This document shows positions 3,819-42,525 of a stretch of 64,000 bases of DNA, in pieces. Origin of the DNA: a virus (lineage: Duplodnaviria > Heunggongvirae > Uroviricota > Caudoviricetes); IMG/VR virus record IMGVR_UViG_2724679538_000004, positions 1-64,000 of that record; one strand, given 5' to 3'. Position 1 is the first letter of the stretch; every line of letters begins with the position of its first letter. The notes beneath the pieces are model-generated. The model saw only the letters and a program-made list of their open reading frames with translations, was not told where the DNA came from and did no database searches. A program made the translations under genes and the position numbers.

Positions 3819-4601
3819 GTGTCAATTACAAAAGTTCCTGGATGGATAGGATCATCAGCGGTTTCAGAAACAGGGCAACGTTGGATGAGTGCTGCCCGCA
3901 CCACAGTCCAATTGTCCGCAGCAGGAAATATGTCACAGATGGGTGGTAGGTCAAAAGAGATTTACTACTCAATAGGGGCTAATCACAATTATAACAAAGA
4001 CACATTAATATCATATTTACGCTCCGTTGGCTCTACACCTGTAGTAGTTACTATTACAGGGGATTTAGTTTCTATAAGCAGTACAGTCCCTTGTCTTGAC
4101 TTTCCGGGTGACTTATCAAACTCATATATTAACCTCGTAATTAATAGTGGAGTTACCGTATATGGACGAGGTGGTAACGGGGGTAACAAAAGTAATGGTG
4201 CTGCTGGGGGAACTGCCATAAATAATGGAATTGGGACTCGTTTACGTATTACAAACAATGGAGCTATAGCCGGTGGTGGTGGTGGCGGCGGTGCTACCTA
4301 TGTGAAATCAAGTCTTTCAGATGGAGTATATGGTGGTGGCGGCGGCAGACCATTTGGTACTCGTGGTGCTTCTTCTGGCCCCATGAGTTCAAATTCCACA
4401 GACGCTACTTTAACAGCGGCTGGTAAAGGTGCGGTGTCAAAGGGAACTGGTGGCGCAGGTAATGGTGGCAACGTGGGTGCCGCTGGCTCTAACGGATATG
4501 GTGGTGGGACAATGTATAATGGTGGTGCAGGGGGCAAAGCGGTGGCAGGTAGTGCGCCAACATGGATTTCAGTTGGGTCGATATATGGCGCTCGTGTGTA
4601 A
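3819..4601 (+). CDS. gp38-like glycine-rich tail fibre adhesin
   Basis: GTG start with RBS; N-terminus VPGWIGSSAVSETGQRWMS resembles T2-type gp38 (from memory); poly-Gly runs (GGGGGGG, GGGGG) separating variable segments. Confidence 0.65.
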   Translation: MSITKVPGWIGSSAVSETGQRWMSAARTTVQLSAAGNMSQMGGRSKEIYYSIGANHNYNKDTLISYLRSVGSTPVVVTITGDLVSISSTVPCLDFPGDLSNSYINLVINSGVTVYGRGGNGGNKSNGAAGGTAINNGIGTRLRITNNGAIAGGGGGGGATYVKSSLSDGVYGGGGGRPFGTRGASSGPMSSNSTDATLTAAGKGAVSKGTGGAGNGGNVGAAGSNGYGGGTMYNGGAGGKAVAGSAPTWISVGSIYGARV

Positions 4602-4612
4602 GTACTTACCTA
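4597..4612. repeat. motif A copy
   Basis: TGTAAGTACTTACCTA overlapping stop codon of gp38-like gene. Confidence 0.7.
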
Positions 4613-4675
4613 CAAAAATGGAAAGAATTGTGGTATAAATTCGCCATCCCGATTTGACTTTTCATGGAGGAAAAC

Positions 4676-4999
4676 ATGTCGAACGAGATGGCGGGAGTTA
4701 CAACTGAACAGGTTGAACGCATCGCCTCAATCGTTGCTCGGGAAGTCGTAGGCAAATTAGGTAAAGAAATACGCGAGGAAATTGGCCAGGAGGTCAACGA
4801 CCAGCTTAAAACCTATTTTGGCGATATGACACCAGCGCAACACAGTATCCAACACTCCAACCTGGACAAGCTTCTTAATCGGCTGGATTCAATTTCAAGC
4901 GGCTTCTTTGGCGGCGTTATTTCAAAAATAACGTCGTTCCTTATTACCGCTCTGATTTTGGGTATTGCTGCTTATGGCGTCAAAAATGGACTGAAATAA
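4676..4999 (+). CDS. membrane protein with C-terminal TM helix; possible holin-like lysis protein
   Basis: GGAGG RBS 5 nt upstream of ATG 4676; single C-terminal hydrophobic helix ITSFLITALILGIAAYGV; position at head of lysis cassette. Confidence 0.35.
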   Translation: MSNEMAGVTTEQVERIASIVAREVVGKLGKEIREEIGQEVNDQLKTYFGDMTPAQHSIQHSNLDKLLNRLDSISSGFFGGVISKITSFLITALILGIAAYGVKNGLK

Positions 5000-5012
5000 C
5001 AGGAGATCAAGG

Positions 5013-5705
5013 ATGAACACTCCAAGAGGTATTCGAAACAACAACCCAGGCAACCTTGATAAAGGTTCTCCGTGGCAAGGTTTAGTTGATAATCCGAATG
5101 AGCCGCGCTTTTGCACTTTCATAGATCCTGTTTGGGGGATTCGTGCATTAGCAGTGACGCTTATCACCTACCACGACAAACGTCGGGCTAAGGACGGTTC
5201 CAGCATAGATACTATCCGTGAAGTTATCGAACGCTGGGCGCCGCCTTCCGAAAACAATACGGCCGCATATGTGAAGGAAGTATCGAAAGCAGTAGGCGTT
5301 GATCCAGATACGGTTATCAACTTGCACAGGTACGACACTCTGCGTCCGCTGGTTGAGGCCATTATTCGTCATGAAAATGGCCGCGGTCCTCTCAAGACGA
5401 AAAATACCTGGTATTCAAATGAGGTCATCAACGAAGGCCTTCGTAGAGCTGGTGTTGTGAAGCCAGTGACGGCAGTTACCACTGTTCCAGTCACTAAAGA
5501 GACTGCCGGTGCTACAGTCACCGCAGGCATTGGCCTTGCACAGATTGCTGATGTTATGCCTCAAGTTTCTGCCGCAATGGACAAAGCTCAAGGCCATATC
5601 TCAAGTGGAGATACGGTACGCATCATTTTTGGCGTAGCTACCATCCTTGTGGCGGCGTTCATTGCCTGGTCCCAGGTTCGCAAGCATCAAAATGGATTAG
5701 TGTAA
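5013..5705 (+). CDS. lysis-cassette protein with NNNPGNL motif and C-terminal TM anchor (possible endolysin)
   Basis: AGGAG RBS; conserved-looking N-terminal RNNNPGNLDKGSPWQG; C-terminal hydrophobic segment; immediately upstream of spanins. Confidence 0.35.
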   Translation: MNTPRGIRNNNPGNLDKGSPWQGLVDNPNEPRFCTFIDPVWGIRALAVTLITYHDKRRAKDGSSIDTIREVIERWAPPSENNTAAYVKEVSKAVGVDPDTVINLHRYDTLRPLVEAIIRHENGRGPLKTKNTWYSNEVINEGLRRAGVVKPVTAVTTVPVTKETAGATVTAGIGLAQIADVMPQVSAAMDKAQGHISSGDTVRIIFGVATILVAAFIAWSQVRKHQNGLV

Positions 5706-5707
5706 GT

Positions 5708-5959
5708 ATGTTTGGCGGCCTGTTTTTCAAAGTTAAATCCGCTTTGTTCACTCTGGCCGCCGTCATTCTCGTCCTTGTCGGCGCATATTCCTATGGTGGG
5801 TATATGGTCAGGCGAAGTATGGAAGAGAAAGAACGGCGGGAAGATAACAAACGTCTTCAAAGCACAGTGGAAGTGGTGAATGAGACGAACAGTCAAATAC
5901 GTCAGAAAGATGCTTCTGCCGTTCATCGTGAGCTGCATGATAAGTGGTTGCGTCATTAA
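5708..5959 (+). CDS. i-spanin (Rz-like inner membrane spanin)
   Basis: N-terminal TM helix then charged coiled-coil-like region; o-spanin ORF begins inside its 3' end in another frame. Confidence 0.7.
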   Translation: MFGGLFFKVKSALFTLAAVILVLVGAYSYGGYMVRRSMEEKERREDNKRLQSTVEVVNETNSQIRQKDASAVHRELHDKWLRH

Positions 5960-6095
5960 GCCACAAACCACCAGCGTGTTGTTCTGCGATGGCGCTGAGC
6001 CTATATATATCAGCAATGACGATGTAATGACCGAAGAAACCGAACGCCAAATCCTTTTTCACAATACGATGGGAGAGAGAGTTTGCGGTTGGTGA
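5910..6095 (+). CDS. o-spanin (Rz1-like outer membrane lipoprotein)
   Basis: Signal peptide MLLPFIVSCMISGC with lipobox ISGC; overlaps i-spanin out of frame. Confidence 0.7.
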   Translation: MLLPFIVSCMISGCVIKPQTTSVLFCDGAEPIYISNDDVMTEETERQILFHNTMGERVCGW

Positions 6096-6131
6096 GGTTG
6101 ACAACTCCCCTCAATGAGGGGAGTTACAATT

Positions 6132-6650
6132 TTATTCGAACAATTTTTCGATAGATTTTGTTGGATAGAACAAAGAACGCTCGTTGTTACCAACAAGCTG
6201 AATAAAGCCTAAACTTTTATAAAAAGCCCTGGCATTATCATTCAACGCCTCAACGAAAAGTCCATGAATACCTACAGCAAGAGAGGCATTGTACACAACG
6301 CGCATTGCATGTGTTACAAGCATTGAGCCAAGTCCTTGACCTTGAAGAGATTTGTCTAAAGCCAGCCTGCCTAAAGTGACACTTGGTACATTCCGATAAG
6401 GCACTTTCTTTTGTTGACTCCTTGAAGGTAAGGCCTCCTTCTCAAAGCAGCTGCCTGACAAAGTGTAATAGCCTAATACTCTTGGCTTTTCTTCTTTGGT
6501 GCAAAGGACATAAGCCCGAAGAATTTTGCCCTCATGCTGTCTTTTCAGGTGGTTGGTTAAAAATGCGTTTAGTGACTCTTCGCCGCAATCAAAACCATTC
6601 AGATCATAATCTTTCTCTCCAGAGAAAATCTCTATCGTCGTATTGCCCAC
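6132..6650 (-). CDS. GNAT acetyltransferase toxin (TacT/KacT-like)
   Basis: 172 aa, GNAT-like motifs (QGQGLG); immediately downstream of DUF1778-like antitoxin in same operon. Confidence 0.7.
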   Translation of the reverse strand: MGNTTIEIFSGEKDYDLNGFDCGEESLNAFLTNHLKRQHEGKILRAYVLCTKEEKPRVLGYYTLSGSCFEKEALPSRSQQKKVPYRNVPSVTLGRLALDKSLQGQGLGSMLVTHAMRVVYNASLAVGIHGLFVEALNDNARAFYKSLGFIQLVGNNERSLFYPTKSIEKLFE

Positions 6651-6657
6651 GAGTAAA

Positions 6658-6927
6658 CTACTCCATGCTTTTCAGACGATCAGCAGCCCGTTTCAGCTTA
6701 TCGTTCGGTGCCGGAGGATTGCTTATAGCATCCATAACCAGATTCCAGGATTCCTCACTTAGAATCAGTCTACGGTGTTGTTCTATAACTTTCGCGGCAC
6801 GTTCAGAGGCACTGCTAACCATGAACTGGGTAATGCTCTGGTTAGACATTGCGGCAGCTTCCTCGATGATGCTTTTATCGTCATCGGTTAATCTCAAATC
6901 GATGCGCTGCTTTTTCAGTGCTGACAT
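6658..6927 (-). CDS. DUF1778/RHH-type antitoxin (TacA/KacA-like)
   Basis: 89 aa, precedes GNAT toxin with 7-bp gap; typical TA architecture. Confidence 0.65.
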   Translation of the reverse strand: MSALKKQRIDLRLTDDDKSIIEEAAAMSNQSITQFMVSSASERAAKVIEQHRRLILSEESWNLVMDAISNPPAPNDKLKRAADRLKSME

Positions 6928-7195
6928 GTGTTCCCCCTGATGGCCAGTGATGCAGGAAGGCCATCAATATCCTCTATTCAAACTGAGTTTTCGACTCAAA
7001 GGTTACTTTACAGGGCTATAGCCCATTGCGTATGTGTCATCAAATTGTGTACGGCAAATTACCGTACCTGTAATATAGAGGCCATTGTTACTTTTTTCAA
7101 CAGACAAATGAACACTGGAACTATCAGCAGTCTCTAACAACCTACCATTTAACCTTTACACCGTAGCCGTAGGCATTTAGGCTATAACGCATATA

Positions 7196-7216
7196 AGAAA
7201 ACAAATTGTTTCAAAC
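7196..7216. promoter_or_regulatory. motif B palindromic operator/promoter element
   Basis: AGAAAACAAATTGTTTCAAAC upstream of parA. Confidence 0.5.
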
Positions 7217-7244
7217 GACAAATATATACGTAAGGGACTCTCCA

Positions 7245-7913
7245 ATGACGAAGATCATTGTGGTTGGTGGAACAAAAGGCGGCCCCGGTAAATCTACCGT
7301 TGCCCAGCAAATCGCAGTTTGTCTCAAGATCAAAAAGAAAAAGAAAGTTCAAATCACCGATATTGATATTCAACGCACCACAACAAGCTGGTGCGAAGAC
7401 CGGCGTCAGAATGAAGAACTTGAGCTAATTCCATTCGCCTATGTGCCGGACGATATCGTTAAACACATCAAATCGCTTAAAGGGCGCTACGATTATGTTG
7501 TTATTGATGCTGGGGGCTTTGACTCCGAAATCCAACGACACGCAATGCTGTTGGCCGATTTCGTCGTTATCCCACTACGTCCTAAGCGTCGGGATTTGAA
7601 GTCGTTGCGTGATATTGATCCGATAGTTGATAACGTTCGCATCATTAACGACAAAGTGAAGGTCCGCGCGGTCATGAACCAATGCCCGGCTCTGCCATCA
7701 CAAGTGTCCCGCATTCTGGCAGCCAAAGAGATCGTTGAGACGTTTGGCATCGAATCTGCGCCAGTCAACCTGTACAACCGCAACGTCTATGACGACGCAG
7801 AAGAATCAGGTCGCTCTATCTTTGAAATGACAGGTAGTGAGCGTGACAAGAAGGCGGAAGCTGAGTTTGAAGAGTTTGTAGATTATCTATTGAGTCTGGA
7901 GGAAGAAGAATAA
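7245..7913 (+). CDS. parA: ParA-type partition ATPase
   Basis: Deviant Walker A KGGPGKST near N-terminus (MTKIIVVGGTKGGPGKST); RBS AAGGGA; followed by small overlapping partner gene. Confidence 0.8.
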   Translation: MTKIIVVGGTKGGPGKSTVAQQIAVCLKIKKKKKVQITDIDIQRTTTSWCEDRRQNEELELIPFAYVPDDIVKHIKSLKGRYDYVVIDAGGFDSEIQRHAMLLADFVVIPLRPKRRDLKSLRDIDPIVDNVRIINDKVKVRAVMNQCPALPSQVSRILAAKEIVETFGIESAPVNLYNRNVYDDAEESGRSIFEMTGSERDKKAEAEFEEFVDYLLSLEEEE

Positions 7914-8272
7914 TGTCCATGAAAATGGGAGACCTTGCAAAGCGCACTGAGCCTACTACACAGGTCAAAAACAACACGCCGTTGCGCCAGCCAGTCAGAC
8001 CACAGGGCCGCCCAACTCGTGGTAAAGAAAAAATCAAAAGCCGTACTATGTCGCTGGAAGACGAGTACTTTGAACTTCTGGAGATGATGAAATGTATCCC
8101 TCGTTTTGAGAAGTTCACACGTTCTGACGTTATTCGTGCAGCCATTTTCCATCTTGCTGAAAAATCGCCGCAAGAAATCGAAGATATCGTGAAACTGAAC
8201 GATGCAATTACAGCTGCCGACGTCACTATGCGTACTGATGAAATCAAACGTGAGCTGATGAAGAAAGGTTAA
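7913..8272 (+). CDS. putative partition centromere-binding protein (ParG/ParB-like)
   Basis: 119 aa, start overlaps parA stop (TAATG); basic N-terminus, position typical of partner of small ParA. Confidence 0.45.
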   Translation: MSMKMGDLAKRTEPTTQVKNNTPLRQPVRPQGRPTRGKEKIKSRTMSLEDEYFELLEMMKCIPRFEKFTRSDVIRAAIFHLAEKSPQEIEDIVKLNDAITAADVTMRTDEIKRELMKKG

Positions 8273-8324
8273 AAATGATGCATTGGCGTTAACGTTAACA
8301 GTGCGCCAATGCATCATAACAGTG

Positions 8325-9143
8325 TCAGACTAATGCCGCGCTAATACTGCGTTCAGTCTTGCCCACTCCCACCTTCACAAAAGGGCTACCGTAGCTTGGT
8401 GGTTTCTTGATTAATTTTCCTACGTATAGTTCTCTAATATGTTCATCGGCTATTCTGCCAACAAATTCATAACGTTTGGTATCAGGGCTAAGAGCTATAT
8501 CTCGTGTAAAGTACTGCTGAGAACCGGCTTTGACCCAGCATTCTATCTGATAAACCTCCATTATTAGCCCACCATATGTAGCGTAGGCATATTTGAGATT
8601 CTCATCTCTGGGAACCTTTGCCCATACGCCACGCGTAGCTTCATATAATGCCAGAGCGGACATTCCTGACTTGTAGGTGCTGTTTAGCAGAAAGGCTAAT
8701 CCGGCGTGCTCAGGAGCAATTTCAGTTTCCTCTTGTAGAACTAAGTGATGGTAGGCATCCAGTGATATTCTTCCCATCAGGGAACCACTTCCTCGTACTT
8801 TATTAGTTAGTTCTCCAACCCCCATAAGATCAATGCATGTTGCCTCAACAAGTTTGGCTGTGCTTTCATCCATGCCATGACGAAGAATATCTATGCCTAA
8901 TTTCTTTTGCGCCAAAAGTTCTTTGATTCGTCTTGATTTAGGAGAATCATCGAGGTACTTGATGTGGTCAAGACAACGAGTCGATTTGCCTTTTCCTATG
9001 TAAAACGGTCTTTTCATCTTGTCTTCTGTATCATAGAGACAGTAAACATAGTATTTAGCCTTATCCAACGATTTCGCGTACACCGATAAATCGTACATTG
9101 TTTCGTCCCTTAGCAACTGAATAATGCGTTCTATTTTACACAT
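8325..9143 (-). CDS. GIY-YIG domain nuclease
   Basis: YYVYCLYD..(7)..PFYIGKGKSTR matches GIY-YIG core with conserved Arg and downstream Glu; C-terminal 160 aa unassigned. Confidence 0.55.
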   Translation of the reverse strand: MCKIERIIQLLRDETMYDLSVYAKSLDKAKYYVYCLYDTEDKMKRPFYIGKGKSTRCLDHIKYLDDSPKSRRIKELLAQKKLGIDILRHGMDESTAKLVEATCIDLMGVGELTNKVRGSGSLMGRISLDAYHHLVLQEETEIAPEHAGLAFLLNSTYKSGMSALALYEATRGVWAKVPRDENLKYAYATYGGLIMEVYQIECWVKAGSQQYFTRDIALSPDTKRYEFVGRIADEHIRELYVGKLIKKPPSYGSPFVKVGVGKTERSISAALV

Positions 9144-9332
9144 AAGTATTTAATTAACTGTAAAATTTCTGGGTGTCTAAGACGACAACTTAAACCTGCT
9201 TCTGTATATATATTTAATAAGTTACTTATTATTTATATACAGAAGCAGGCTCTTTAAAGTACACGTCAGAACAACTCCCTTCTGTTTCTACTTCCAAAAA
9301 CAAGCACCAGTCGCTATGATTCGCTCAAAATG

Positions 9333-9352
9333 ATAAGTAAGTAGTTACCTAT
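9333..9352. repeat. motif A copy
   Basis: ATAAGTAAGTAGTTACCTAT abutting ATG 9351. Confidence 0.7.
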
Positions 9353-10106
9353 GAGCGCGAATCATATGAGTCAAATTTTTTTTAACACTATAGATAACGA
9401 CCAGTACGACTTCATGACTGAATGGGACACCTGCGTTATGGACAAGTGGGTAGCTGACAACATCGGTCTGTCACGTTGTAAAGACGAGGCAGAATTGTTT
9501 GAGACGAAGTGGTTTGATTACCGCGACATGCATCCGCTCATGGCTACATGTTTGTTCACAGAGGCATACAAGCGCCAGTACGCCAATATCATGCTGACAC
9601 ATGGTCGTGAGCATTTTGAAACAGCGCCATATTGCACTGGACTAAAGCGTTTGCCCTACCAGGAGTTGTCCGCTGCAAACAAAACTTCTTTATGGAAAGC
9701 ACGCCAGTTTGCGGATCAGTACTGCTGCACATATGACTACTTCATTTCAACCGTTCTCTCTGCTGCCGCAACGCGTCTGTGGGACAAGTTGCCTCGACCA
9801 CAGCATCTATGGCAGCCAGAGCTAATTGAAATTTTCGAGAATAAGTTAGCTAAGCGATCGTTAACCCGTCTGGAAGACTCTCTGGTGAGCTTTAAGCACA
9901 TGGGCGACACGCAATATAACCCGATTCAGGAACGTTATTTTGAGTGGGTTCTGGAGCGTTTACGTGGTGTTGCCCGTGATAAGCGGATTCGAACAATCTT
10001 TTCAGCTATCTGGCTTATGGAAATAGTGCCAGAGCGCCTTATTTACGCCCACTTCCCAGAAGAACTGGAAGAAGCGCGGCGATTCGTTGATCCCCTGTCT
10101 CATTAA
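9351..10106 (+). CDS. hypothetical protein (possible replication accessory/helicase loader by position)
   Basis: 251-aa ORF immediately upstream of helicase gene; no motif recognised. Confidence 0.4.
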   Translation: MSANHMSQIFFNTIDNDQYDFMTEWDTCVMDKWVADNIGLSRCKDEAELFETKWFDYRDMHPLMATCLFTEAYKRQYANIMLTHGREHFETAPYCTGLKRLPYQELSAANKTSLWKARQFADQYCCTYDYFISTVLSAAATRLWDKLPRPQHLWQPELIEIFENKLAKRSLTRLEDSLVSFKHMGDTQYNPIQERYFEWVLERLRGVARDKRIRTIFSAIWLMEIVPERLIYAHFPEELEEARRFVDPLSH

Positions 10107-18922: not shown

Positions 18923-18997
18923 GATGGTGTAGCTCAGCGGTAGAGCAGTTGGCTGTTAACCAACTGGTCGGTGGTTCGAATCCACCCACCATCGCCA
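18923..18997 (+). tRNA. tRNA-Asn (anticodon GTT)
   Basis: Hand-folded cloverleaf: acceptor GATGGTG/CACCATC, D-stem GCTC/GAGC, anticodon loop CTGTTAA, T-arm GGTGG-TTCGAAT-CCACC, encoded CCA. Confidence 0.85.
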
Positions 18998-19002
18998 ATT
19001 TA

Positions 19003-19089
19003 GGGGAGTTAGTCCGTAGAGGTAGCGGTGTAGACTGTAAATCTACTGTCATTGCGACTCGGGTGGTTCGACTCCATCACTCCCCACCA
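19003..19089 (+). tRNA. tRNA-Tyr (anticodon GTA), long variable arm
   Basis: Acceptor GGGGAGT/ACTCCCC, anticodon arm GTAGA-CTGTAAA-TCTAC, T-loop GGTTCGACTCC, encoded CCA. Confidence 0.75.
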
Positions 19090-19093
19090 AATT

Positions 19094-19169
19094 GCCGGTT
19101 TAGCTCAGTTGGTAGAGCAGTCGCTTTGTAAGCGAATGGCCAGCGGTTCAAGTCCGTTAACCGGCACCA
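19094..19169 (+). tRNA. tRNA-Thr (anticodon TGT)
   Basis: Acceptor GCCGGTT/AACCGGC, D-arm TAGCTCAGTTGGTAGAGC, anticodon loop TTTGTAA, T-loop TTCAAGT, encoded CCA. Confidence 0.75.
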
Positions 19170-32418: not shown

Positions 32419-32689
32419 AGAATTATGGCGCTTGTTGAGGAAGTCACTCCTCTTACGCACTTTGTTTTGCCATGCCGGCAGTTAGCTTCTGCCTTTGACT
32501 ATTCATGCGGCAACCCCGCATTTCGCCACAATGGGCAATTCACTTTAATGGAATAAACTGGCCGTTGTGTCGATTTAATTAGCATGGCCTTACCATGCTA
32601 ATTTATTCAACTTGTACAATCCTACAAATCTATCCACTCAGGCTTACACCGTCTTCGTTATTGTAGAAATGAGGATCATCAGCGTTGAA

Positions 32690-32905
32690 TCAGCTTAGAG
32701 CAACGACATTTGCTGCTGCTGGGCCTTTAGCCCCATTCTCGATAGAGAATTCGACCTGCTGGCCTTCTTCCAAAGTGCGGAAATTATTACTCTGAATTGC
32801 CGAAAAATGTACAAAAACATCTTTACTGCCATCAGCAGGAGAAATAAAGCCAAAGCCTTTATCAGAGTTAAACCATTTTACTAAACCAGTCATTTTATTA
32901 GACAT
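32690..32905 (-). CDS. cspA: cold-shock protein (CspA family)
   Basis: [38 protein letters not shown] near-identical in pattern to E. coli CspA; long untranslated leader upstream. Confidence 0.85.
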
Positions 32906-33234
32906 AGATATTACCTTCTTAATTTTGTGAGCCACATAGTGCGGCGAGAATTTGATCTGTATAGATTGGGACTTACTTAGGCACTTAAGGAGGAGACTCA
33001 CGAAGAAGGGAAATCAGAAGATAACACTGAACTGAGACTGCTTTACTAAAACTGCTTACATAAGGTCTGTCTTGCAAACCAACGATGCTATTAACGCATA
33101 CCCTTTCTTTTCATGCAACCTTTATTTTTCAAAGATAACTAATTTTTGTCACCGTTGGTTTAGTAAACGTTAACGAACCAGACGATGACAGACACCTTTA
33201 CAGAGAACAGATGCCCGCCAATTGGCGGGCATCA

Positions 33235-33798
33235 TTATGCGCATTTCGCAATATCTTTGCGGCGTTTAATCAGTTTCTCAGCAATTTGCTCTATTTCGTT
33301 GAAATCTTTCGAGACGCTGTTTCGAAGCGCCAGATTCCATTTACTCAAAGTTCGGGCATTTTGGACAATCTGATCGCCCTCTTTAAGTCGTCCGTTATTC
33401 ATGAGCCATTCAGCCACATCAGCCCAATCCCACAGAGGCGACTGGCCTTTTATGCGTTGTACAGGGCAAGGGAAGTCGCCGCTTCCGCGCTTACCGTCTT
33501 TGAGCAACGCCACAGCCTGGCGAGACAGGTCTGTCAGTTCCGCGATATCGCTTAAGCCCACAAGAGCCGAGTCGACGGATTCAACAATTGCACCGATACC
33601 GGCTGATTCAATATTGTCGACCGCAGATGCGATAGCTGCATCAAGTGATTGTGCTTCGCGGTCAAATTCTACATAGACGGAGTTTCCATATGCGCAAATT
33701 AGCGCATCGTCACAGCCGTTTTGGTACAGCGCGTCTTCCAGTCCTTCCGTCTCATACGATACGCCTGAGAGCGTCAGAGTGAAGTTATAAAGCGCCAT
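33235..33798 (-). CDS. hypothetical protein (possible HicB-like partner)
   Basis: RBS AAGGA before ATG 33798; downstream of small ORF on same strand. Confidence 0.4.
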   Translation of the reverse strand: MALYNFTLTLSGVSYETEGLEDALYQNGCDDALICAYGNSVYVEFDREAQSLDAAIASAVDNIESAGIGAIVESVDSALVGLSDIAELTDLSRQAVALLKDGKRGSGDFPCPVQRIKGQSPLWDWADVAEWLMNNGRLKEGDQIVQNARTLSKWNLALRNSVSKDFNEIEQIAEKLIKRRKDIAKCA

Positions 33799-33858
33799 AG
33801 TATTCCTTTGAAGATAGTTGGACAGTTTCTGCAAAAGGCGGCTATTGCCGCCTTGAAA

Positions 33859-34083
33859 TCATTTACAACGATCAACCGTTCGTTTGATCTGTTTGGCATG
33901 GTTTTCGGTATTACCCGGAGTCGACCATACGCTCATTTGGTGAGTTTTGTGTTCACCTTCTGGATTACCGCATCGCAGTCTGCAAAAACAATGCGCAGAA
34001 CCACCAGCTGCTACCCAGATCCAGCCTTTACTTAATGCATAGTCAATGGCTGCTTGAATATGCTTATTCGGATGTTGCTTCAT
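33859..34083 (-). CDS. small hypothetical protein (possible HicA-like)
   Basis: 74 aa with GW..GGSAH segment; upstream of 33235-33798 in same orientation. Confidence 0.3.
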   Translation of the reverse strand: MKQHPNKHIQAAIDYALSKGWIWVAAGGSAHCFCRLRCGNPEGEHKTHQMSVWSTPGNTENHAKQIKRTVDRCK

Positions 34084-41469: not shown

Positions 41470-42525
41470 CTATTTGCGAGTCTTTGCCTTGCGCAACTCT
41501 TCGAGAAGCGCCAGTTCTTCTTTACTCAACATGACCATTTTGCCTTCTTTTTCGTCAGGCGCAACGTCGATAATGTCATCTTGATTCTCATCTGGGAGGC
41601 TATATTCCGTCTCATCATTATCGATTTTTGTTGATATTTGTGCCTGGCGTAACTTTGGCCGCCTATAGTGGATGACGAAGTAGACCGAGTTTCCGCGCTT
41701 AACTTCCGTGTAATCGAGATATCCTATCTCTCGCAGCTGTTCCATAGCCTTTCTTACCGTCGCATTCTGAGTAATAGTGCGACTTGTCAGATTAAGTCTG
41801 GCGCGTAAACGGGCTAGTGATATTGGTGCCGGATCAGGCGGCAAACTTTCAATAAAAGTATAAAGCGCCTGAGCGGATTCTTTTCTTGAGAGTTCGTTTA
41901 TAGCCCGGAGTTGCAGAAGAACCTTTTTGTCGAACTGGTAGAGTTCGAAAATCTTGGGATCTGCTTTCAGTTCGACCGTATCGTGCTTGACACTATATTT
42001 TGCCGTTTGCACAAGATGCGTTACGTAAAACTCATCAGAGCCTTTGCTACGGAACGAGATGGTATTTGTGGCAATACGGCTTAGCGAACTGTCCAGGCGT
42101 TTGCGTAACTTCGCTGATGACCTGGCGGTCGGAATGCCACACAGCCTTACAAACTCAACGAACGGCAACGTGACGGTATCGCCAACGACCTTGTGTTTGG
42201 CAAACGCGTGGATTATTCCCACCCACGTTTTAAAGTCGTTATCCATATCAAGCCGAAGGCCAGAGATCCTTATGTCTTCGTACCCTTCTGCTTTTGCCAG
42301 AGACAGCTGTTTGAGTTCAGCAGAGGCATCCATAGAGACCATTTGCCCCTTTCTTCCTCTGGATGTCGATTTCAGCGTCGGAACGAAGAGGCCCAGACGC
42401 ATCAAAGCAACAGGCTGAACAGTGTTATTAGTGTTAGGAACCAACGTAACAACTTCGCCTGTCTTTTTATCTGTTTCTGAAAATGCTTCAACGATCGCTA
42501 TGTTTTTATTGCCGTTTTCGCTCAT
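41470..42525 (-). CDS. repA: iteron-binding plasmid replication initiator (RepA/Rep_3-like)
   Basis: 351 aa, flanked on both sides by arrays of its presumptive binding repeats; C-terminal winged-helix-like region. Confidence 0.7.

Follow-up and report, generated by a model that had tools for sequence, protein, structure and literature searches.

Type II toxin–antitoxin (TA) operons of the GNAT/DUF1778 family are well characterised, and the closest described relatives of the locus considered here belong to the branch known as clade A. The clade A toxins AtaT, KacT and AcaT acetylate Gly-tRNA together with tRNAs that bear a hydrophobic or aromatic amino acid, thereby blocking translation (PMC9177977; PMC7595197); they share one substrate profile (PMC9177977), and over-expression of Pth counteracts them (PMC9177977; PMC7595197). 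On the regulatory side, the structure of KacAT on DNA reveals that the kacAT palindrome spans the transcription start, has a compressed AT-rich centre and is read by the antitoxin residues R8, D10 and R12 (PMC6698736). Here we consider a pair of genes at 6132–6927 in positions 1 to 64,000 of the Caudoviricetes record IMGVR_UViG_2724679538_000004, the 64-kb stretch that we refer to as the window. Our best explanation, in which we have good confidence taken as a whole, from the TA identity through a mechanism drawn from homology to an addiction role drawn from context, is that these genes form an intact type II TA operon of the GNAT/DUF1778 family, within the AtaRT/KacAT sub-clade (clade A). The pair would be cargo expressed in the plasmid (lysogenic) state of an SSU5-like phage-plasmid and would most likely serve for addiction, making loss of the element costly to the cell, alongside ParA partition and a second TA module, HicAB.

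The toxin and antitoxin proteins

The two genes lie in the order antitoxin then toxin on the minus strand, separated by 7 nt, in a bicistronic layout (Table 1). An earlier note, made from the letters of this DNA without database searches, had described them as a GNAT/DUF1778 pair with TacAT/KacAT-like organisation. Both open reading frames are confirmed in position and strand, the family assignment is borne out by Pfam and PDB matches and by conserved residues, and the organisation can be stated more exactly as that of the AtaT/KacT sub-clade. In a search of all PDB sequences, the toxin matches AtaT of Escherichia coli O157:H7 with E = 5.2e-79, gapless over residues 2–171, and KacT of Klebsiella pneumoniae with E = 1.9e-74, whereas the remaining solved GNAT toxins reach only 5e-22 or weaker, which argues for an AtaRT/KacAT-type pair rather than a TacAT-type one. 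The antitoxin matches the Pfam family PF08681 (TacA1/DUF1778) over residues 8–86 at 1.8e-26 and 92.3 bits (cut-off 21), and has full-length PDB matches to KacA (1.3e-41) and AtaR (1.4e-40), to which it is 79% and 77% identical, respectively. Its predicted architecture is an N-terminal ribbon–helix–helix DNA-binding domain followed by a C-terminal toxin-neutralising domain.

The earlier note had also called for an alignment to AtaT, and this gives 70.0% identity without gaps. Residues to check were taken from the AtaT positions whose mutation lowers or abolishes toxicity (PMC7595197). Y144, G108, Y85, R95, F30, H34, R37, S76, S78, K81 and K82 are all identical in the window toxin, and they include the catalytic tyrosine, Y144, and the glycine of the acetyl-CoA site, G108. 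The catalytic and dimer-interface residues are retained throughout, as are toxin-side partners of the antitoxin (e.g., Y47, F69, F132, F161, and S166), and the AtaT residues retained in the window toxin do not vary among nine aligned clade members, comprising phage-plasmid copies and chromosomal ones from Escherichia, Enterobacter, Cedecea and Brenneria. Four changes relative to AtaT, R40E, R71K, K77R and K79Q, all affect contacts to the tRNA acceptor stem. Among the ten such contacts on helices alpha1 and alpha3 (H34, R37, R40, R71, S76, K77, S78, K79, K81, and K82), six are the same as in AtaT; the substitutions R71K and K77R are conservative, while R40E and K79Q each lose a positive charge. 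In the antitoxin, 21 of the 26 KacA positions implicated in DNA reading, tetramerisation or toxin binding (PMC6698736) are identical, among them the DNA-contact residues R8, D10 and R12 as well as M65, I68 and L78, and position 77 is lysine, as in AtaR.

Could the GNAT protein instead be a non-toxic acetyltransferase, or the decayed remnant of a TA toxin? It matches four GNAT Pfam families above their cut-offs, including Acetyltransf_1, _7 and _10, and such generic matches by themselves would permit a non-toxic enzyme; the NCBIfam matches, all of them under their cut-offs, would likewise fit this view. Against it stand the 70% gapless identity to a proven toxin, the full complement of catalytic and dimer-interface residues, and the conservation of a cognate antitoxin and operator. 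Moreover, the ratio of nonsynonymous to synonymous substitution rates (dN/dS), calculated against E. coli phage-plasmid homologues, lies at 0.058–0.062 in the toxin gene and at 0.064 in the antitoxin gene; at about 0.06 in both, it therefore indicates strong purifying selection. A harmless or decaying protein is thus very improbable. Twenty-one public contigs, among them GCA_000968885.2, encode the identical toxin protein, each with the same neighbours.

Between lineages of the AtaT/KacT clade, the antitoxins are better conserved than the toxins, the reverse of the usual type II pattern: pairwise identities among the window and the loci L001 (phage Cyrano, see below), L003, L013 and L035 are 72–90% for antitoxins versus 59–70% for toxins. 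The extreme case is the pair of an Enterobacter phage-plasmid, whose antitoxin is 90% and whose toxin is 64% identical.

By analogy with the characterised members of the clade, a toxin dimer would transfer the acetyl group of acetyl-CoA to the alpha-amino group of aminoacyl-tRNAs and thereby halt translation. The likely substrates would be Gly-tRNA and the Trp, Tyr, Phe and initiator Met tRNAs, as for AtaT, KacT and AcaT. The C-terminal domain of the antitoxin would wrap around the toxin and so block both acetyl-CoA binding and toxin dimerisation, while a toxin2–antitoxin4 hexamer would bind the palindrome and repress the operon, following the AtaR/KacA heterohexamer model; toxin in excess of antitoxin would then lead to derepression.

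The element also carries four tRNA genes, Asn(GTT), Tyr(GTA), Thr(TGT) and Ser(TGA). Three consecutive G–C pairs in E. coli tRNA-Tyr have been reported as the recognition determinant of AtaT; at those positions the tRNA-Tyr of the element has G4–C69, A5–U68 and G6–C67. A speculative idea is that the element's own tRNA-Tyr might be a poorer substrate of its toxin.

Promoter, operator and leader

Upstream of the antitoxin gene lies a predicted sigma-70-like promoter, found by a consensus scan with 10 of 12 matches, a sequence match only; both of its hexamers are invariant in an alignment with Escherichia phage Cyrano (pLF82) and pGS04EC-1. The predicted operator begins 5 nt past the −10 hexamer, on its downstream side, and probably spans the transcription start. 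Its motif, GTACGG-N7-CCGTAC, occurs once in the 64-kb window, where 0.03 occurrences would be expected by chance. The chromosomal ataRT operator of O157:H7, just upstream of ataR, reads ATGTACGGT-N5-ACCGTACAT, with the same half-sites at the same spacing. We examined the motif across clade loci, namely ten phage-plasmid loci, chromosomal ataRT, the Enterobacter, Cedecea and Brenneria loci and the phage-plasmid of Enterobacter hormaechei. It is present exactly once per locus, 26–148 nt upstream of the antitoxin ATG, the one exception among them being a Brenneria locus (L018) that has no exact match. These loci have invariant half-sites around a variable, AT-rich centre. As this arrangement fits the published KacAT–DNA structure, autoregulation by the TA complex at this palindrome is well supported at the level of sequence.

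The same motif is seen 85 nt upstream of a DUF1778 gene in Nocardia cyriacigeorgica (L024, 3637–3655), a distant locus whose GNAT protein shares no more than 35% identity with the window toxin. The operator half-site may therefore be conserved far beyond the AtaT/KacT clade.

Between the operator and the antitoxin start codon runs a leader that is conserved in alignments of the phage-plasmid homologues, and whose long form was found only in phage-plasmid copies. It contains a 12-bp perfect palindrome, GGGCTATAGCCC (7013–7024), which is invariant in the homologues, a GAGT/ACTC hairpin, and the element TGATGGCC-N13-GGCCATCA (6938–6966), which abuts the Shine–Dalgarno sequence. A near-copy of the palindrome, GGCTATAAC (7180–7188), lies beside the parA promoter, and the two could be binding sites for the partner protein of ParA or for another regulator. 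A structured regulatory RNA in the leader was considered and the claim dropped: the 154-nt leader fold is no better than that of shuffled sequence (z = −1.34), and an Rfam search near the TA pair found no family.

The TA cassette spans ~6100 to ~7140. Its left edge is marked by a GC-rich hairpin located where the Rz1 and toxin genes converge (dG −19.4 kcal/mol, z = −4.1), which is followed by a T-run on the plus strand only, with no U-tract on the minus strand, and which resembles an intrinsic terminator serving the plus-strand lysis cassette. At the other end, only the ~100 bp nearest to parA (7141–7244) are common at the DNA level to Enterobacter, Citrobacter and Cronobacter plasmids; the right edge is therefore placed at ~7140, and 7141–7244 belongs to the partition locus.

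Cargo of a phage-plasmid and its likely role

The earlier note had placed the pair on a prophage-plasmid, and this holds: the window is an SSU5/pHCM2-type phage-plasmid, with genes for RepA, ParA, phage structural proteins and lysis on an SSU5-like backbone. Its first 25 kb are ~84% identical to Escherichia plasmids (~106–120 kb, non-mobilizable), to Cyrano/pLF82 and to phage CMS-2020a, with Salmonella phage SSU5 more distant. The local gene order is holin, endolysin and Rz/Rz1 (plus strand), toxin and antitoxin (minus), ParA and a 119-aa partner (plus), a GIY-YIG protein (minus), and then helicase and primase. Such elements differ in what fills the slot that separates the lysis cassette from parA. 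SSU5 has two unrelated plus-strand genes there; ~145 Escherichia/Shigella plasmids and three phage records carry the TA pair at 90–93% DNA identity; and p4-20710 of Enterobacter hormaechei holds, in the same slot and orientation, a diverged clade A pair (toxin 64%, antitoxin 90% identical) with the half-sites of the window operator. A scan of species-representative genomes found only chromosomal relatives, at 66–69% identity, in Enterobacter, Cedecea and Brenneria. The pair is thus known biology, in that the ~145 plasmid records and one published phage-plasmid genome are already annotated: the plasmid copies as "GNAT family N-acetyltransferase / DUF1778", and the Cyrano homologue as "KacT toxin", reported as a lysogen-expressed moron (PMC9928086). 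The identity claim of the earlier note is correct and is here made more precise by placement in the AtaRT/KacAT clade and by a defined operator, while functional claims about the pair are ones that we infer.

The cassette is 91–95% identical at the DNA level to its E. coli counterparts versus 75–87% for the flanks, and its synonymous divergence (dS) of 0.22–0.41 is 2–5 times lower than that of the flanking backbone genes (0.6–2.7). Low dS and high identity relative to the flanks suggest that SSU5-like lineages have exchanged this cassette with one another.

What, then, does the pair do for the element? We favour addiction because the element has a plasmid state (RepA, ParA), because the pair sits beside the partition genes, and because the Cyrano homologue is transcribed in the lysogen, with transcripts of the toxin at 35x and of the antitoxin at 60x the prophage background in RNA sequencing (PMC9928086); Cyrano is reported at ~5.5 copies per cell. 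Post-segregational killing and plasmid stabilisation by the pair, which the earlier note had proposed, are therefore plausible. Several considerations weigh against this role or its strength. Toxicity, neutralisation, substrates and stabilising effect of the window copy are all inferred from its relatives, and in the literature searched we found no experiment on the stability, toxicity or defence effects of a copy from any SSU5-like element. The four changed tRNA contacts (R40E, R71K, K77R, K79Q) could shift the substrate preference of the toxin. With ParA partition and HicAB already present, the pair may contribute little to stability. This reading does not account for the ~121-nt leader. Finally, ~30% of complete E. 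coli genomes have a chromosomal ataRT (1,626 chromosomal places counted over 5,426 genomes), which, having the same operator half-sites and an antitoxin 77% identical, could blunt addiction in those hosts.

This last point leads to a different account, in which the module is selfish cargo: in many hosts the chromosomal AtaR would bind the operator of the module and neutralise its toxin, largely undoing the addiction effect (anti-addiction), and the module would persist through its own recombinational mobility instead of by making the element more stable. The identity of operator half-sites and of R8, D10 and R12 between the two systems would suit such a state of affairs, as would the 32 of 44 residues of the C-terminal neutralising domain that the antitoxin has in common with AtaR, and the low dS of the cassette relative to its backbone speaks for mobility. 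In Klebsiella, one chromosome–plasmid GNAT pair does cross-neutralise, but most of the non-cognate GNAT pairs tested do not (PMC9431474). Furthermore, ~70% of E. coli genomes are without chromosomal ataRT, and the deficit in co-occurrence is weak at most, in that, of 301 plasmid copies, no more than ~72 are in a genome that has a further copy, compared with ~90 expected under independence, a rough estimate from aggregate counts that ignores phylogeny. We consider this account unlikely, if somewhat less so than the defence and host-benefit roles discussed below.

Another idea, tentative and in our judgement closer to doubtful than to probable, is that the phage-plasmid pair and chromosomal ataRT form one cross-talking regulatory network. 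It is proposed because the half-sites and the DNA-reading residues are identical and the antitoxins 77% identical. Judging from these likenesses, cross-repression between the two systems is likely and cross-neutralisation possible. The chromosomal AtaR may repress the incoming module, neutralise it or do both; conversely, the antitoxin of the element may silence the host ataRT, and the leader might add a layer of control specific to the element. If this were true, anti-addiction by chromosomal AtaR would set which hosts can lose the phage-plasmid. Such cross-talk with the ataRT of many E. coli, through a common operator and a near-identical antitoxin, is the sole question raised by this locus that goes beyond routine annotation.

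The variable slot and the expression of the Cyrano homologue in the lysogen would also suit an anti-phage role, or superinfection exclusion, in which an infecting phage frees the toxin, translation stops, the infection aborts, and the remaining lysogens with their phage-plasmid are protected. A candidate defence gene, the PD-T4-3-like GIY-YIG gene, lies 1.4 kb away, and other tRNA-targeting toxins are known defence effectors. Neither protein of the pair, however, matches a PADLOC defence model (E <= 0.01), no sensor or trigger is evident, and the literature searched contains no paper that ties GNAT/DUF1778 toxins to phage defence. The abortive-infection function raised by the earlier note is accordingly left without support, and we think a defence role improbable.

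A benefit to the host through stress tolerance, persistence or virulence strikes us as improbable to the same degree. Here transient toxin activity would yield non-growing cells that tolerate antibiotics or survive in macrophages, which would favour the element indirectly. Links have been drawn between KacT and tolerance of antibiotics and between TacT and persister cells in macrophages (PMC9431474; PMC11205521), AtaT is reported to enhance the virulence of enterohaemorrhagic E. coli (PMC7957018), and LF82, the host of Cyrano, is an intracellular pathogen. These are only analogies, based mostly on over-expression, and the persistence role suggested by the earlier note has no basis other than the likeness to KacT and TacT. 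The sequence offers nothing to tell such a benefit from addiction, and the module is spread over commensal, animal and environmental isolates.

Neighbouring genes and comparison with known systems

Table 1. Features of the TA locus and of other loci discussed in the text (window coordinates; aa, amino acids).
Feature	Position	Strand	Description
Putative tail-fibre-related gene	3819–4601	+	Glycine-rich 260-aa protein, upstream of holin
GC-rich hairpin	6103–6125	+ (terminator-like)	Between convergent Rz1 and toxin genes; 10-bp stem then ACAATTTTAT
Toxin gene	6132–6650	−	172 aa, GTG start; predicted AtaT/KacT-type GNAT aminoacyl-tRNA N-acetyltransferase
Antitoxin gene	6658–6927	−	89 aa, ATG start, GGGGGA just before; AtaR/KacA-type DUF1778
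Leader	6928–7048	−	Operator to antitoxin ATG; ~121 nt (120–121 in phage-plasmid copies) versus 26 in chromosomal ataRT
Operator palindrome	7049–7067	(palindrome)	Predicted; GTACGG-N7-CCGTAC, 19 bp, reading GTACGGTAATTTGCCGTAC on the minus strand
Sigma-70-like promoter	7100–7072	−	Predicted; TTGAAA (7100–7095), 17-nt spacer, TATATT (7077–7072)
ParA-type ATPase	7206–7913 (open reading frame)	+	Real start probably ATG 7245; divergent from TA operon
ParA partner	7913–8272	+	119 aa; its sole matches are SSU5_034 and a PHROG of unknown function
GIY-YIG gene	8325–9143	−	272 aa, directly after partition genes
tRNA genes (four)	18923–19902	+	Asn(GTT), Tyr(GTA), Thr(TGT), Ser(TGA)
cspA-like locus	32665–33083	−	Rfam cspA thermoregulator (RF01766)
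HicA/HicB	33238–34083	−	Second TA module
RepA gene	41473–42525	−	

The earlier note had named the adjoining partition genes parA and parG. A divergent ParA is indeed next door. The product of 7245–7913 is well supported as such by its matches to NCBIfam ParA_partition (3.3e-35 and 121.5 bits, below the 180-bit cut-off of that model), to a ParA-like PHROG (1.8e-53) and to Pfam AAA_31/MipZ/CbiA; its homologues are 221–222 aa long. The ParG label, in contrast, is unconfirmed, as profile and sequence searches with the 119-aa partner gave no ParG Pfam match, no meaningful NCBIfam match and no PDB match. A single-sequence AlphaFold model of the partner (pLDDT 65) has residues 1–47 disordered and helices at 48–60, 70–84 and 86–118; so weak a model is compatible with a ribbon–helix–helix centromere-binding protein and is not evidence for one. 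The annotation of the homologous partner in Cyrano (L001, 9014–9373) as a "RelE/ParE putative toxin" looks unfounded, given the absence of a Pfam match and membership in a PHROG of unknown function. No centromere-like tandem array was found in 6900–8400. The direct repeats near the partition locus are weak two-copy families, and GGCTATARC is enriched there (4 matches versus 0.56 expected), two of the four matches being both strands of one palindrome.

The genome as a whole is a mosaic. RepA is 99.7% and HicB 100% identical to Cyrano, an E. coli phage, while the lysis, partition and replication genes (4600–10100) are only 75–87% identical to it at the DNA level. The near-identity of these two proteins suggests Escherichia or a near relative as the source of the element. 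In the second TA module, HicB is 100% and HicA 96% identical to CYRAN_50/51; the Phd/Doc pair of pGS04EC-1 is absent from the window. The GIY-YIG protein matches the Pfam LEM-3-like GIY-YIG family at 2.4e-7 and the PADLOC candidate defence model PD-T4-3 at 5.3e-24, and its position holds another gene in other SSU5-like elements (DUF2971 in SSU5 and in Enterobacter p4-20710). The match to the Rfam cspA thermoregulator is full-length, at 185.7 bits against a gathering score of 78, and a cspA-like cold-shock gene is therefore carried by the phage-plasmid together with its regulatory 5′ untranslated region. The glycine-rich protein encoded upstream of the holin has a counterpart, on contigs of identical context, that matches Pfam GP38 / Gp38_N, a T-even-type tail-fibre adhesin; its gene has no DNA match in Cyrano or pGS04EC-1, and the tail-fibre tip module therefore differs between lineages.

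For annotation, the two genes can now be named as an ataRT/kacAT-type TA operon with a defined promoter, operator and edges at ~6100 and ~7140. More broadly, the locus adds detail on the maintenance of SSU5/pHCM2 phage-plasmids, which are widespread in Enterobacteriaceae, some with resistance genes; in the window, ParA partition occurs together with at least two TA modules (HicAB and the pair described here) as well as a candidate defence gene.

How does the pair compare with the systems described so far? The nearest relatives are CYRAN_26/27 of Cyrano and the pairs of the ~145 SSU5-like plasmids, which occupy the same slot (lysis cassette, pair, parA) in the same orientation, have toxins 94–95% and antitoxins 97% identical to those of the window, and share its promoter, operator and leader. 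Their toxins are 173 aa long versus 172 aa in the window. The surrounding backbone, unlike the cassette, is only 75–87% identical to that of Cyrano, and the window therefore represents a different SSU5-like lineage.

The AtaR–AtaT pair of E. coli O157:H7 (PDB 6AJM, 6AJN, 6GTS) is chromosomal, between panM and livJ, whereas the window pair resides on a phage-plasmid, and DNA identity between the two is only ~66%. Both are antitoxin-first with an intergenic gap of 6–7 nt, and at the protein level the likeness is close: toxins 70% identical without gaps and antitoxins 77% identical, with Y144, G108, Y85 and R95 kept in the toxin, K77 in the antitoxin facing a small residue at toxin position 109 and S146, and GTACGG/CCGTAC half-sites at identical spacing upstream. 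The window differs in the placement of the operator, 121 nt from the ATG as against 26 nt in ataRT, in the four toxin changes R40E, R71K, K77R and K79Q, and in the GTG start of the toxin gene.

KacA–KacT of Klebsiella pneumoniae (PDB 5XUN, 5ZGN) is comparably near, with a toxin match of 2e-74, an antitoxin 79% identical that has R8, D10 and R12 and 21 of the 26 functional positions in common, and a palindromic operator at the promoter. It departs from the window pair in the contact of KacA R77 with KacT E110/R147, in place of which the window has K77 with S109 and S146, as in AtaRT. KacAT is also chromosomal, and conditional cooperativity has been demonstrated for KacAT only.

TacAT of Salmonella, ItaRT, AtaRT2 and GmvAT have in common with the window pair the two-gene architecture, the domain families and the acetylation of aminoacyl-tRNA (PMC9177977). 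They belong, however, to clades B and D, with narrow specificity (Gly or Ile/Leu), and modules of the TacAT type are far less similar to the window pair, with PDB E-values of 1e-12 to 1e-22 as compared to 1e-79 for AtaT.

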